Source of the DNA: Escherichia phage JM10
Direction: 5' to 3' (one strand)
Sequence record: PP400777
Length of the DNA stretch: 64,000 nt
Position 1 is the stretch's first letter. Each line of letters opens with the position of its first letter. The position numbers and the translations under genes are program-made. The notes below the pieces were generated by a model that had not been told where the DNA came from, searched no databases, and saw only the letters and a program-made list of their open reading frames with translations. Of the stretch, positions 1 through 7,237 are shown one piece after another.

Positions 1-106
1 ATATATTGAGTGCCCTTGAGGTGGAGCTGTTCATCACGAGCAATGAACTTCATAATCTTGGCATTACCTTCCATAATTTCCATGTTCTTATGGAAGTTAA
101 AGGTAC
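1..106 (-). CDS. nrdB: Ribonucleotide reductase small subunit NrdB, exon 2 (5' part only; CDS continues beyond window start)
   Basis: Minus-strand frame reads (C)[34 protein letters not shown], the conserved R2 segment following FYVSFAC; an in-frame stop at about 135-137 shows it is not continuous with exon 1. Confidence 0.7.
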
Positions 107-1197
107 CGTTATGTTCGATTGAGCTCGCTAATTCTCAACCCGTTCTCTTATGAACTGCTACATATTACTATGCAGACCAGACTATATCACAATCCCAGAG
201 GGATTCTCCCCATTTCGAGTCGCTTGACCCTACGTCCGAAGACTAGTCGTTGAACCTTGCTTTGCAATTGTCGCCGTGCCATCGTTTATATGTTGATGGT
301 GATAAATCTTTCTTATCACAATATGGACAATTCAATTGAATTCTATTTGGATTTAATTTACATCTGTCATTATGTTTTAGATAAAATCCAGGACCTTTAC
401 CAATGTGACCGCAGAAATCACATGTGATTTCTTTTTGTGCAGGATGGGTTCCGTTCTTAACCATTTCTAATGTTTTTGCTGATGTTCTTTTCTTATGGTC
501 TTCTGATAAGAAATGATGTGAACCGTCATTTACCCGTTTTGATTGAGTTTCTGACTGCATTTTACCACCGCAAAATACATGAGTACCTTCTTTTATAGCT
601 GCAATATTGCGTTCTTTAACTTTTGCAATATGCTCAGCTTGTTGAAAATTATGTATACCTAATGCAACTCTATTTAAATTAGATTTACGCTGTATTTCAC
701 CGTCTAAAAGATGAAATGTACCATTTTCTATCTTAGATTTAATAGAGGCAATATTTTTAGCTCGTACTTCAGGGATATTAAAAATCTGGATTTCTCTAGA
801 TTTTGCGGCTTTAGAAGCTAATTCAGAAATTTCTTCAGGAGAATATTTCATTCTAAGCTTTATAGCATGACAAGCCTGGTAATCTTTTTGAGCTAAATGT
901 ATATCATAATGTTCCTGTATAGAAAGGCACATCAAATTATCTAAATCATTATTTTCACGGTTACCGTCTTTATGATGGATTTCGTATGTTCTTCCATCAG
1001 AATCTTTAGGTATAGGTCCGTTAGCATCTATCCAAATTTTTCTATAGTTCAATTGTGCATCCTCTTAAAAGTATAATCATATTTATATTATACTAATTAA
1101 AGGTGCAAGCAAAACCTTGGCTGCTAGTTTTCCTATAAAGGACTTTCCAGCAATTAAAGGAGTTTTCGATAAACGTTACCGTTTAAAGGCGCATTTT
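107..1197 (-). mobile_element. Group I intron in nrdB (about 1091 nt) carrying an HNH homing endonuclease ORF
   Basis: Exon 1 ORF ends FYVSFA then stop; exon 2 resumes the conserved R2 sequence 1.1 kb downstream; proposed junction (exon ends in U, intron ends in G) restores FYVSFA-C-TFNF; the nrdB intron is a known T-even feature. Confidence 0.65.
243..1052 (-). CDS. I-TevIII: Intron-encoded HNH homing endonuclease, full length (269 aa)
   Basis: HNH motif YEIHHKDGNRENNDLDNLMCLSIQEHYDIH; C-terminal CxxC zinc-finger-like region; located inside the nrdB intron. Confidence 0.7.
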   Translation of the reverse strand: MNYRKIWIDANGPIPKDSDGRTYEIHHKDGNRENNDLDNLMCLSIQEHYDIHLAQKDYQACHAIKLRMKYSPEEISELASKAAKSREIQIFNIPEVRAKNIASIKSKIENGTFHLLDGEIQRKSNLNRVALGIHNFQQAEHIAKVKERNIAAIKEGTHVFCGGKMQSETQSKRVNDGSHHFLSEDHKKRTSAKTLEMVKNGTHPAQKEITCDFCGHIGKGPGFYLKHNDRCKLNPNRIQLNCPYCDKKDLSPSTYKRWHGDNCKARFND

Positions 1198-1873
1198 ACG
1201 CAAAAGATACATAAAAACGAATAGCTTCTAAGGCATTAATAACGTGCAAACAGAGGTAAAGAGATTTCATTAAAGCACGTTTAGCTTCGGCTTCTTGTTT
1301 AATAGCTCGGTTTAAACGAAAGTCGGCATCAGGAGATTCTTTAGCTAGTTCTACAAATTCTTTAGCATTTTCCCAATGACGAGTCTTGACTAGAACATCA
1401 TCGTAATATTTACCTATTGATTCAGCTCGTTTCATGATTGCTTCGTCTAATACAATCTCATCAAATACCTTAGATGGATCTGTATAAAGATTTCGCATAA
1501 TATGAGTATATGAACGAGAGTGAATAGTTTCACTGAAAGTCCATGTAGCAACCCATGTATCTAATGAAGGGTCTGAAAGCAATGACATAAGTACCGCAGA
1601 TGGTGCTCTACCTTGGATAGAATCTAATAATGATTGATACTTAAGGTTGTTGGTAAAGATGTCCTGTTGGAACTGTGGAAGCTTATTGAACTGCGCAGAG
1701 TCCAACATCAAGTTTACCTCTTCTGGACGCCAGAAAAACGACAATTGCTTTTCAATAAGTTCTTCAAAAACTTTATGACGCTGAATATCATACCGTGCGA
1801 GGCCAAGACCAGAACCAAAGAACATCGGTTCATTCAAAACATCGACTTGTTGTGTGTTAAAAACTGTACTCAT
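1198..1873 (-). CDS. nrdB: Ribonucleotide reductase small subunit NrdB, exon 1
   Basis: 225-aa ORF with R2 di-iron motifs, ending in the conserved LEAIRFYVSFA followed by a stop inside the intron. Confidence 0.85.
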
Positions 1874-1926
1874 TATATTTTCTCACTTAGTTTAACTCAT
1901 CCATGAGTAAATTATAATCAAAAGTC

Positions 1927-4182
1927 TTAAAGCTTACAAGCAGAACAATCTTCAGCTTTTGGAGTTTCTAGTTCATAGTCGTCAGTACCAGAACCGTCGC
2001 GAGTATTATGATAGTAGAGGTTTTTACCGCCAAAGTACCAGAAGTAAAGCAAATCGTCAAGCATTACAGACATTGGCACTTTACCTTTCTCAAATACTGC
2101 AGGGTCATAGTAAGTATTAGCAGAAGCAGATTGGCACACCCATTTCAACATGATAGCAACTTGGGTCAAATAAGGTTTATTACCTTTCTTAGCAAGTTTC
2201 CACGCATAGTCGTAAAGACTCATGTTATGTTCGATATTAGGAACAACCTGTCGGAAGTTGCCTTCTTTAGATTCTTTAATACTTACTGGACCGCGTGGGG
2301 GCTCAATCCCGTTTGTAGAGTTTGATACTTGACTGCTTGACTCACAAGGCATGAGTGCAGACAACGTTGAGTTACGAATTCCATGTTCTTTGAGTTCAGC
2401 TCGAAGTTCTTCCCAGTCACAGACGTAGTTCGGGGCTGCGATTTGGTCAATCTTTTTATTGTACCAGTCGATAGGTAATTCGCCTCTAGACCATTTAGTG
2501 TCTGAATAATACTCGCAACATCCTTTTTCTTTGGCGAGTTTGATTGATGCTTTGATAAGGCCATATTGCAATCTCTCAAACAATTCATGAGTCAAATCGT
2601 TAGCGTCTTCATATGAAGCAAAGTTGCTTGCTAACCATGCAGCATAGTTCGTCACACCAACACCGAGGTTTCGACGCTTTTTAGCTTTTAAAGCTTCTGG
2701 AACCGGATAATCTTGATAGTCTAACAGGTTATCAAGTGCACGTACTTGTACTTCAGCAAGTTCATTAATTTTATCTTGGTCCTGCCAATCAAAGTTATCT
2801 AACACGAATGCAGACAACGTGCACAACCCGATTTCAGCATCAGGACTATTCACATCATTAGTTGGAATAGCGATTTCACAACATAAGTTACTCTGACGAA
2901 TTGGAGCTTTTTCACGAATAAATGGAGTGTAGTTGTTCGTGTTATCAACGAATTGCGGATAAATTCGAGCAGTACCAGAGCGTTCAGTCATGAACAATTC
3001 AAAGAGTTCTAGTGCTTTGATTCTTTTCTTTCTGATTGTTGGGTCTTTTTCAGCTTTCTCATAAAGCTCACGGAATTTATCTTGATCTTCAAAGAACGAG
3101 TAATACAGTTCGCCTGACATTTCGTGAGGGCTAAATAAAGTAATATAATCATTTTTACCAAGGCGTTCCATCATAAGGTCATTAATCTGAATTCCGTAGT
3201 CCATATGTCGAATACGGTTTTCATCCACGCCTTTGTTATTTTTCAGAACCAATAGGTTCTCTACTTCTAAGTGCCACATTGGATAATACGCTGTAGCAGC
3301 ACCACCACGAATACCGCCTTGAGAACAAGATTTTACTGCAGTTTGGAAATGTTTCCAGAATGGAATAACACCCGTATGTCGAACTTCACCCATACCGATC
3401 TTAGAACCTTCTGCACGAAGCATACCAACGTTGATGCCGATACCGGCTCGTTTAGAAATATATTCAATAATTGATGCTGAAGTTTTGTTAATAGATTTTA
3501 AGGAATCACCGGCTTCAATAACTACACAACTAGAGAACTGGCGAGTTGGAGTACGAGCACCTGCCATAATTGGGGTTGGCAATGAAACTTGATGAGTAGA
3601 AACGGCATCATAAAAACGAATAATATGTTTCAAACGGTCATGAGTTTCGTCTTGGTGTAAGGCCATGCCAATAGCCATGATAGCAAACTGTGGAGTTTCA
3701 TAAATCTTCCCAGTTGTTTTATCTTTAACTAGATATTTTTCTTTAAGCTGCATAGCACCAGCATAAGTCAGGTCAAAGTCTCGTTCATGTTTAATCTGTG
3801 AATCGAGATAAATGATTTCTTCTGCTGAATATTGAGACAACAACTCAGGATCGTATTTGCCTTCATTAACACAGTAAGAAATATGGTCGATAAAAGCAGG
3901 CGGTTCAAACTGCCCATATACATCTTTACGAAGTGCAAACATTAGCCCTTTGGCGGCGACATAATGATAATCAGGTTCTTCGACAGAAATCAAGTTAGCT
4001 GCAACTTTAATACAAATCTTCTGAATATCTTTGGTGCTCATCCCATCGACAAGATGGGTCTTAATTTCTTCGTATAATTCATATGGGTCGATTTGTGTTC
4101 CTTCACATTGCCAAGTTAAGACTTGAATAATTTTCTGTGCATCAAAATTTTGGGATACACCACTGCTCTTAGTTACTTGCAT
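1927..4182 (-). CDS. nrdA: Aerobic ribonucleotide reductase large subunit NrdA
   Basis: 751-aa ORF; class I RNR alpha motifs (ATP-cone N-terminus, NLCCEI active-site region, C-terminal CSACKL); T4 position upstream of nrdB. Confidence 0.93.
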   Translation of the reverse strand: MQVTKSSGVSQNFDAQKIIQVLTWQCEGTQIDPYELYEEIKTHLVDGMSTKDIQKICIKVAANLISVEEPDYHYVAAKGLMFALRKDVYGQFEPPAFIDHISYCVNEGKYDPELLSQYSAEEIIYLDSQIKHERDFDLTYAGAMQLKEKYLVKDKTTGKIYETPQFAIMAIGMALHQDETHDRLKHIIRFYDAVSTHQVSLPTPIMAGARTPTRQFSSCVVIEAGDSLKSINKTSASIIEYISKRAGIGINVGMLRAEGSKIGMGEVRHTGVIPFWKHFQTAVKSCSQGGIRGGAATAYYPMWHLEVENLLVLKNNKGVDENRIRHMDYGIQINDLMMERLGKNDYITLFSPHEMSGELYYSFFEDQDKFRELYEKAEKDPTIRKKRIKALELFELFMTERSGTARIYPQFVDNTNNYTPFIREKAPIRQSNLCCEIAIPTNDVNSPDAEIGLCTLSAFVLDNFDWQDQDKINELAEVQVRALDNLLDYQDYPVPEALKAKKRRNLGVGVTNYAAWLASNFASYEDANDLTHELFERLQYGLIKASIKLAKEKGCCEYYSDTKWSRGELPIDWYNKKIDQIAAPNYVCDWEELRAELKEHGIRNSTLSALMPCESSSQVSNSTNGIEPPRGPVSIKESKEGNFRQVVPNIEHNMSLYDYAWKLAKKGNKPYLTQVAIMLKWVCQSASANTYYDPAVFEKGKVPMSVMLDDLLYFWYFGGKNLYYHNTRDGSGTDDYELETPKAEDCSACKL

Positions 4183-4525: not shown

Positions 4526-4837
4526 TTATACCGCCATTTTAGCTTTGATAGCTGGATGAGATTCGTAATTTTTAAGAACGAAATCAGAATGTGTCATCGT
4601 TCCAGTAACCCAGTCCATTTGGATTTTTGTAGGCCAATTCTCAAAATTACTAGGCCAATTAATTTCAAGAGAACACAACTCTTTAGGTTCACGACGAAGA
4701 ACTTCTTTGCATTGTTCTACATGATTGCTGTAGATATGTGTGTTGCCGCCTGAGAACACTAAATCACCTGGGATAAGGTTACACATCTTCGCTACAATAT
4801 GCGTCAAGGCAGCGTACGAGGCAATGTTGAACGGTAG
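4526..4837 (-). CDS. td: Thymidylate synthase, exon 2
   Basis: LPFNIASYAALTHIVAKMCNLIPGDLVFSGGNTHIY... continues TS after the exon 1 end ...VDVFLG; exon1+exon2 = 286 aa. Confidence 0.9.
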   Translation of the reverse strand, partial: LPFNIASYAALTHIVAKMCNLIPGDLVFSGGNTHIYSNHVEQCKEVLRREPKELCSLEINWPSNFENWPTKIQMDWVTGTMTHSDFVLKNYESHPAIKAKMAV

Positions 4838-5853
4838 CATTATGTTCAGATAAGGTCGTTAATCTTATCCCGGAATTATATCCAGCTGCATGTCACCATG
4901 CAGAGCAGACTATATCTCCAACTTGTTAAAGCAAGTTGTCTATCGTTTCGAGTCACTTGACCCTACTCCCTAAAGGGATAGTCGTTAGGCATTTATGTAG
5001 AACCAATTCCACTTATCAGATTTTACACGGTAAGTAACTAATCCTGATGAAATTTCAAAATGTCTAGCCGCATCGGCTGCACATTCAAAAATAATCCCAT
5101 CGCATGAAATCTTTTTGATGTTAGCTGGCTTTTTGCCTTTCATCTTTTCAGATAGTTTAGTTTTAGTTTTTTCTGAATGTTTGTGATTAAAGAACGGGTT
5201 ATTTTCACCTGAACGTTTTCGGCACTTTCCACAAGTATCGGCCGAAGATGGTATGCGAACACCGCATTTACAAAACTTGTGGTTTTCTGGATTCCATCGG
5301 CCATTTTTACTTCCGTGTTTACCATAAAGAGCTTTCCGACCGTCAGGACCAAGCTTAAGCATCTTAGCTTTAACAGTTTCAGCTCGTTTCTTAGCAATTT
5401 CTTCTTTTAATGGATGATTTGAAAGCACATCGCCAAAAGACGCATCAGCAATATTATATCCATTAATTTTAGAATTTAGCTCTTTAATCCAAAAATTTTC
5501 TCGTTCAATAATCAAATCTTTCTCATATGTAATTTCTTCCAGTACAGAGCATTCAAAAACATTACCATGTTTATTAAAAGACCTTTGAAATTTTATAGAA
5601 GAGTGAACACCGTTTTCAAGGTCTTTAAAATGTCTCTTCCATCTTTTCTCAAAATCTTTAGCACTTCCAACATACACTTTACCGTTTAAAGTGTTTTTAA
5701 TCTGATAAATTCCGCTTTTCATAAACACCTCTTTTTATATAGAAGTATTTATTAAAGGGTAGTCCTACAATTTAGCACGGGATTGTCTACTAGAGAGGTC
5801 CCCCGTTTAGATAGATTACAAGTATAAGTCACCTTATACCTAGGCCTAAATTA
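4838..5853 (-). mobile_element. Group I intron in td (1016 nt) with I-TevI ORF
   Basis: Intron begins UAAUUUAGGCCUAGGUAUAAGGUGACUUAUACUUGUAAUCUAUCUAAACGGG (T4 td intron-like 5' end), ends ...AAUG before CUACCG; length 1016 nt as in T4. Confidence 0.88.
4985..5722 (-). CDS. I-TevI: GIY-YIG homing endonuclease I-TevI (intron-encoded)
   Basis: MKSGIYQIKNTLNGKVYVGSAKDFEKRWKRH... GIY-YIG domain plus C-terminal zinc finger/NUMOD3-like DNA-binding region; listed ORF trimmed to the MKSG start. Confidence 0.92.
   Translation of the reverse strand: MKSGIYQIKNTLNGKVYVGSAKDFEKRWKRHFKDLENGVHSSIKFQRSFNKHGNVFECSVLEEITYEKDLIIERENFWIKELNSKINGYNIADASFGDVLSNHPLKEEIAKKRAETVKAKMLKLGPDGRKALYGKHGSKNGRWNPENHKFCKCGVRIPSSADTCGKCRKRSGENNPFFNHKHSEKTKTKLSEKMKGKKPANIKKISCDGIIFECAADAARHFEISSGLVTYRVKSDKWNWFYINA

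Positions 5854-7237
<1,384 letters not shown>

Follow-up and report, generated by a model that had tools for sequence, protein, structure and literature searches.

The window analysed here, a stretch of 64,000 nucleotides from Escherichia phage JM10 (sequence record PP400777), begins within nrdB, the gene for the small subunit of class Ia ribonucleotide reductase. The gene lies on the minus strand in two exons (1873..1198 and 106..1) parted by 1091 nt (1197..107), and only 106 nt of exon 2 are present because the start of the window cuts nrdB. With a slash for the junction, the minus strand reads ...TCT TTT GCG T/AAAATGCGCC at the 5′ junction (1198/1197) and ...ACATAACG/GT ACC TTT AAC at the 3′ junction (107/106). 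The unspliced exon 1 frame (1873..1196) encodes the 225 N-terminal residues and ends ...EAIRFYVSFA, followed by a stop. Excision of 1197..107 joins exon 1 to exon 2 in a single open frame, and the protein read from this frame is colinear with NrdB of JS09 and NHEP10, two phages whose gene has no intron. The intron interrupts a cysteine codon past its first base (T/GT), that of Cys226, directly after FYVSFA. A preliminary description of this DNA had nrdB cut within the segment FYVSFA/C by about 1091 nt; the coordinates and the length turned out to be exact, and the frame is restored. In annotation, nrdB should be treated here as a single spliced CDS and not as two fragments, and many related GenBank records are wrong in this respect. 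The features of the locus are listed in Table 1.

Table 1. Features of the split nrdB gene of phage JM10 and of its intron, in window coordinates; a prime marks the 3′ strand of a helix.
Feature	Position	Strand	Remarks
nrdB exon 1	1198..1873	-	residues 1-225 and first base of Cys226; based on ORF, spliced translation and mosaic identity
Group I (IA2) intron, predicted self-splicing, 1091 nt	107..1197	-	first base A1197, terminal omega-G at 107
P1	1189..1201	-	exon GCGU (1201..1198) with internal guide GCGC (1192..1189); invariant in 7 sequences
P2 hairpin, GUAA loop	1170..1185	-	three compensatory pairs
P3 5′ strand; P4	1162..1157; 1152..1147 with 1127..1122	-	within 1109..1162
P5 hairpin	1142..1131	-	one compensatory pair
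P6 5′ strand; P6a 5′ strand	1121..1119; 1115..1109	-	within 1109..1162
L6a hairpin pairing the ORF Shine-Dalgarno	1056..1107	-	fold -14.9 kcal/mol, z=-4.2
T4 late-promoter consensus TATAAATA	1087..1080	-	in loop of L6a hairpin
Shine-Dalgarno AAGAGGA	1066..1060	-	paired inside L6a hairpin
I-TevIII ORF, 269 aa and TAG stop, TTG start	243..1052	-	in loop L6a
491 nt of ORF absent from T4 intron (intron nt 210-700)	498..988	-	bounded by GAAGAAC/GAAGACC repeats
P6a′; P6′; then J6/7	265..259; 256..254	-	catalytic core 3′ half, 180..265
P7; P7.1; P7.2	248..244 with 184..180; 243..234; 230..217	-	P7.2: one compensatory pair
P3′; P8; J8/7	211..206; 204..192	-	within 180..265
P9; P9.1; P9.2	175..158; 155..142; 140..117	-	within 117..175; compensatory pairs: one in P9, two in P9.2
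nrdB exon 2, first 106 nt	1..106	-	begins GT ACC TTT AAC

The insert had been called a group I intron, with secondary structure modelling from P1 to P9 suggested as a check. Seven distinct cores (the window, T4, PD112, S16, DCP80, SG1 and HY03) were aligned, and a P1-P9.2 fold of 72 pairs in 14 helices was obtained, with standard pairing in 503 of the 503 cells. Eight pairs are compensatory across this alignment (three in P2, two in P9.2 and one each in P5, P7.2 and P9). None of 500 shuffles matched the pairing and compensatory values of the model, and sliding the 3′ partners by one to three columns left 34-44% of positions paired and no compensatory pairs. An unconstrained minimum free energy fold of the ORF-deleted core regained all helices except the pseudoknotted P7, while the core helices P3-P8, including the P3/P7 pseudoknot, can all be written on the window sequence. 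At the 5′ splice site, U(-1) forms a wobble pair with G6 in P1 (U1198 with G1192), and the last intron base, G107, stands just before GUACC. Extra P7.1 and P7.2 hairpins between P7 and P3′ are the hallmark of subgroup IA2. Both are present here, as GUC-UUCG-GAC (P7.1) and GGGUC-AAGC-GACUC (P7.2, where DCP80 has C-G in place of U-A, a compensatory change), and the intron is therefore assigned to IA2. For P6a we adopted the register G83-C89 with GCAAAGC, in which every one of the 7 sequences can pair. Two other registers were rejected: that of the Rfam alignment contains a G.G mismatch, and the pairing of GCUUGC with GCAAAGC is broken by a variant in T4, DCP80 and HY03.

No Rfam match was found over the whole window at the gathering threshold. 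In a permissive search, the 3′ half of the intron aligned to RF00028 with 33.9 bits (E=1.4e-6; gathering score 50), and the T4 nrdB intron, used as a positive control, gave 35.7 bits with the same partial alignment. Higher scores were reached by the ORF-less or shortened introns of PD112 (304 nt, 68.6 bits), DCP80 (309 nt, 74.1 bits) and SG1 (420 nt, 57.9 bits), of which that of PD112 differs from the ORF-deleted core of the window by a single 2-nt indel. The window copy, like that of T4, thus most probably stays below threshold because the ORF interrupts L6a and not because of a defect. The scores of the ORF-less copies, together with the P1-P9.2 model, back the assignment to group I. Other sub-threshold Rfam matches in 1..1400 (rseX, mir-1, snoRNAs; E 0.45-9.4) were dismissed as chance. 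The T4 nrdB intron is self-splicing according to the literature (PMC2790892), and near-identity to its core suggests that the window intron would also splice itself in a guanosine-dependent manner.

Group I introns of many unrelated phages bear a recognisable resemblance to the 3′ part of the core. As a separate observation, the last 89 nt of the intron (P9-P9.2) are 86.5% identical to a stretch of the marine schitovirus Pseudoalteromonas phage pYD6-A that falls inside a joined "ATPase" CDS holding an internal ORF. This stretch probably forms the 3′ terminus of a further group I intron; a search of it against Rfam at E<=0.001 gave no match.

The ORF within L6a begins with the TTG at 1052..1050, 7 nt past the Shine-Dalgarno AAGAGGA. 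This is the sole start codon that fits both a length of 269 residues and the numbering used by Robbins et al. The last nine codons of the ORF (…NCKARFND and the stop) overlap P6a′, P6′, J6/7 and the 5′ strand of P7. The protein matches Pfam HNH_3 over residues 4-48 (E=6e-13) and PHROG 12324 ("intron-like DNA endonuclease") over residues 1-269 of 269. It is identical to RB3 I-TevIII at 268 of 269 positions, gap-free, and to the proteins of phages e11/2 and FL31 at 269 of 269. Mutagenesis of the RB3 enzyme showed that H26, H27, N39 and H48 are needed for cleavage and that C211, C214, C242 and C245 are needed for DNA binding by the zinc fingers (PMC1865063). We found all eight residues kept in the window protein, whose two fingers read C211-X2-C-X12-H-X3-C231 and C242-X2-C-X13-H-X3-C263. 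The intact HNH ORF of 269 residues announced in the preliminary description is accordingly a full-length I-TevIII with its HNH residues and both zinc fingers kept. The ORF and its counterpart in Salmonella phage S16 differ by 61 synonymous and 41 non-synonymous changes, which gives a dN/dS of 0.12; against HY03 the dN/dS is 0.075.

A further Pfam match within the protein, to the anti-sigma-28 factor FlgM (residues 74-114, at 830..952; 26.2 bits vs a cutoff of 25), was set aside as spurious and probably compositional, the matching stretch being a helical Lys/Ser-rich linker between the HNH and DNA-binding domains. Searching PDB sequences with the ORF gave a chance match only (E=0.29), hence no solved relative by sequence.

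The signals in front of the ORF are of a kind described for three T4 intron endonucleases, in which the ribosome-binding site is sequestered on read-through early and middle transcripts and becomes accessible on late transcripts initiated within the hairpin (PMC2988022). If JM10 follows T4, its ORF would be silent on early nrdB transcripts, with its ribosome-binding site buried by the hairpin, and would be translated from late transcripts starting at the TATAAATA promoter inside it.

Taken together, we put at about 95% the probability that the element is a full-length RB3-type T-even nrdB group I intron of subgroup IA2 carrying the I-TevIII gene. Such an element is already known, real but ordinary, and identical protein sequences are public; in T-even phages the intron and its enzyme belong to textbook knowledge, as do their regulation and mobility. 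The window intron is 99.9% identical to that of phage PTE-Eco05. Matches to the intron were found in 128 phage records, 84 of which reach at least 80% coverage of the full-length form. Among the other matches sampled, most show the T4-type deletion, a few have lost more, and two, in Pseudoalteromonas records, are unrelated matches of 8%. The full-length form was found in phages of Tequatrovirus, Mosigvirus, Dhakavirus and Gelderlandvirus and in Klebsiella phages. Contiguous, intronless matches to the joined nrdB exons came from 656 records, and the distribution is patchy, with intronless alleles in close relatives.

The exons on either side of the intron form a mosaic. Over 24 kb, the window shares about 96% identity with phages such as JM17 and G2469, and across nrdB the Mosigvirus FL31 matches it best; by these similarities, the host phage is Mosigvirus-like. 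RB3 and FL31 were used as references for the exon comparison; the exon 1 of T4 carries an indel in the variable region. Against RB3, a Tequatrovirus, nrdB of the window differs at a single position between -178 and +31 relative to the insertion site, whereas its first ~500 nt carry 6-12 mismatches per 46 nt (~20% divergence). The opposite trend is seen against the intronless nrdB genes of the Mosigviruses JS09 and NHEP10: the 5′ part has 0-9 mismatches per 46 nt, and next to the site the values are 16, 10, 5-6 and 3-5. The last ~178 nt of exon 1 (1198..1375) are thus RB3/T4-like and the remainder Mosigvirus-like. In exon 2, positions 76..106 (to +31) are RB3/T4-like and the pattern past +31 is mixed, the downstream boundary being hidden by the window edge. 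An RB3-like flank next to a Mosigvirus-like 5′ nrdB is therefore read as the co-conversion footprint of homing, and it suggests that the intron was acquired by homing from a T4/RB3-like donor. It may serve as a natural example of the transfer of an intron with its flanks between phage genera.

As regards the target itself, the T4-type intronless homing site is CGTTTTTATGTATCTTTTGCGT/GTACCTTTAAC. The intronless sites of NHEP10 and JS09 differ from the T4/RB3 type at -14, -8 and -2, and that of NHEP10 also at +5 and +8. These changes are all synonymous, and one of them lies at the I-TevIII cleavage position.

The single residue that separates the window protein from that of RB3 is residue 23 (codon at 984..986), which is Tyr here and Asp in both RB3 records. 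Tyr23 was found in all the non-RB3 copies examined (FL31, S16, HY03, e11/2, fPS-2, Bp7, U5, Pu-Krd-SF5 and G2540-3). From this sampling, Tyr23 is the consensus and Asp23 a change specific to the RB3 lineage. The catalytic H26/H27 follow three positions after this residue. In vitro, the enzyme of RB3 proved weak and labile, and homing reached only 4.3% per recipient (PMC1865063). For enzymology, it should be borne in mind that I-TevIII with the consensus Tyr23 differs from the RB3 enzyme of all published biochemistry.

We weighed several other readings of the locus. One could suppose that there is no intron and that a free-standing HNH gene splits nrdB into two separately translated fragments, which is how several related records are annotated, with two nrdB CDS and no intron. 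This has a negligible probability, since a complete group I core with covariation occupies the insert, the core is almost identical to that of the T4 nrdB intron, reported to be self-splicing (PMC2790892), and exon 2 has no start codon or ribosome-binding site of its own at the junction, while splicing restores the frame exactly. A reading in which the intron does splice while its intact endonuclease is inactive or immobile here, inherited vertically and heading to degeneration, deserves somewhat more attention but is still very unlikely. Degenerate forms are common (T4-type at 598 nt, SG1 at 420 nt, PD112 and DCP80 at ~305 nt, and the frameshift of U5), and the activity of the RB3 enzyme is low; the degenerate ORFs of so many relatives mean that an intact ORF is by itself no proof of current mobility. 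However, every catalytic and zinc-binding residue is retained, dN/dS is 0.08-0.12, the intron is full length in 84 of the 128 intron-bearing records, and the I-TevIII cleavage site lies at the centre of the exon mosaic. The preliminary description had spoken of an "apparently functional", mobile intron, and the dN/dS values and the co-conversion tract in the flanking exons lend this indirect support.

The route of arrival can be questioned separately. Instead of I-TevIII, a free-standing endonuclease such as the HNH enzyme MobE might have brought the intron in, or might spread it, by trans homing, and we rate this a shade less probable still than an inactive endonuclease. It has a precedent in crosses of T4 with T2, in which MobE mobilises the defunct T4 intron; the MobE nick site is at nt 122-126 of nrdB (PMC2790892). 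In the window, however, the gap between nrdA (1927..4182) and nrdB is only ~54 nt (1874..1926), and neither mobE nor the nrdB.1 of T4, both present in RB3 and T4, was found between the two genes. Codon 42 of nrdB is AAG in the window, and AAG at this codon has been reported for all phages without mobE (PMC2790892). The donor-like tract ends ~178 nt upstream of the insertion site and therefore falls short of the MobE nick site, the 5′ 500 nt of nrdB being of the recipient type. From the absence of mobE and the shortness of the tract, we infer that homing driven by I-TevIII is to be favoured over trans homing by MobE. A more specific proposal would be that homing between genera occurred recently, from a Tequatrovirus-type donor into a Mosigvirus-type nrdB and through I-TevIII and not MobE, and that Asp23 might explain the low and labile activity of the RB3 enzyme. 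It is speculative, and we consider it rather unlikely as it stands.

Under the reading that we prefer, an RB3-type intron with I-TevIII, both splicing and cleavage in JM10 may be predicted from near-identity to characterised relatives. To judge from its identity with the introns of T4 and RB3, the intron in the nrdB pre-mRNA would fold into the P1-P9.2 ribozyme, and guanosine would attack after U(-1), itself paired with G6 in P1. The 3′ splice site would then be set by the terminal G (window position 107), and ligation of the exons would restore the NrdB frame across Cys226. With the ORF housed in the peripheral loop L6a, the core should be left undisturbed despite the overlap of nine codons. 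Repair of a recipient gene off the intron-bearing copy would copy in the intron together with flanking exon DNA.

Among known systems, the T4 nrdB intron (598 nt) occupies the same site and has a near-identical core, with a few substitutions, compensatory in P9. It lacks nt 210-700, which span the HNH domain and the central part of the ORF, and what is left is a remnant of 97 residues, immobile on its own. The truncation of the T4 endonuclease gene had been pointed out beforehand, and this was borne out by the loss of 491 nt and by the annotation of the remnant as a defective endonuclease.

The introns of PD112 (vB_vPM_PD112) and DCP80 (~305 nt) share the site and the core and keep the late promoter and the hairpin over the ribosome-binding site, but the entire ORF has been lost exactly between two ACAATTG repeats, between which the window copy has its ORF. 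In the window, this 7-nt direct repeat brackets the I-TevIII ORF at 1050..1056 and 265..271, and its first copy includes the TTG start codon. As PD112 is a Tequatrovirus and DCP80 a Gaprivervirus, and as both deletions run exactly between the repeats with promoter and hairpin kept, they look like recurrent microhomology deletions and not like ancestral ORF-free introns. Short repeats also bound the deletions of T4 and SG1. In phage U5 the I-TevIII frame is broken after 65 codons in an intron of nearly full length, and in Klebsiella phage EI the annotated I-TevIII ORF begins later; both are further stages of endonuclease decay.

The T4 td intron with I-TevI is alike in its IA2-type design, in its residence in a gene of nucleotide metabolism and in an ORF looped out from the core, but it sits in another host gene and encodes a GIY-YIG endonuclease, whereas the nrdB intron of the window encodes an HNH enzyme. 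A td intron is also found within the window, at about 4841..5853. The split thymidylate synthase gene, td (4529..6402, minus strand), has an exon 1 at 6402..5854 corresponding to positions 1-175 of Pfam Thymidylat_synt and an exon 2 at ~4840..4529 corresponding to positions 176-266, and an ORF of 247 residues between them (5728..4988) carries a GIY-YIG domain together with the zinc-finger and DNA-binding domains of I-TevI. We identify the insert as the td group I intron, whose ORF codes for an I-TevI-like homing endonuclease. An Rfam search at the td intron gave no match, presumably owing to the ORF.

Finally, the nearest characterised system is the nrdB intron of RB3 (X59078, KM606994). It was described together with I-TevIII by Eddy & Gold 1991, as cited in PMC2988022, and the biochemistry of its enzyme was reported by Robbins et al. 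2007 (PMC1865063). The insertion site and the length of 1091 nt are the same, and the two introns are 99.7% identical, well above anything that chance would give, with three nucleotide differences, every one within the ORF. The HNH residues, the zinc fingers, the promoter and the hairpin over the ribosome-binding site are common to both copies. RB3 has Asp23, a Tequatrovirus host and mobE upstream of nrdB, whereas the window has Tyr23, a Mosigvirus-like host and no mobE. To the RB3 element, the JM10 intron adds only three points: another host lineage, an nrdB with no mobE beside it, and Tyr23 where RB3 has Asp23.
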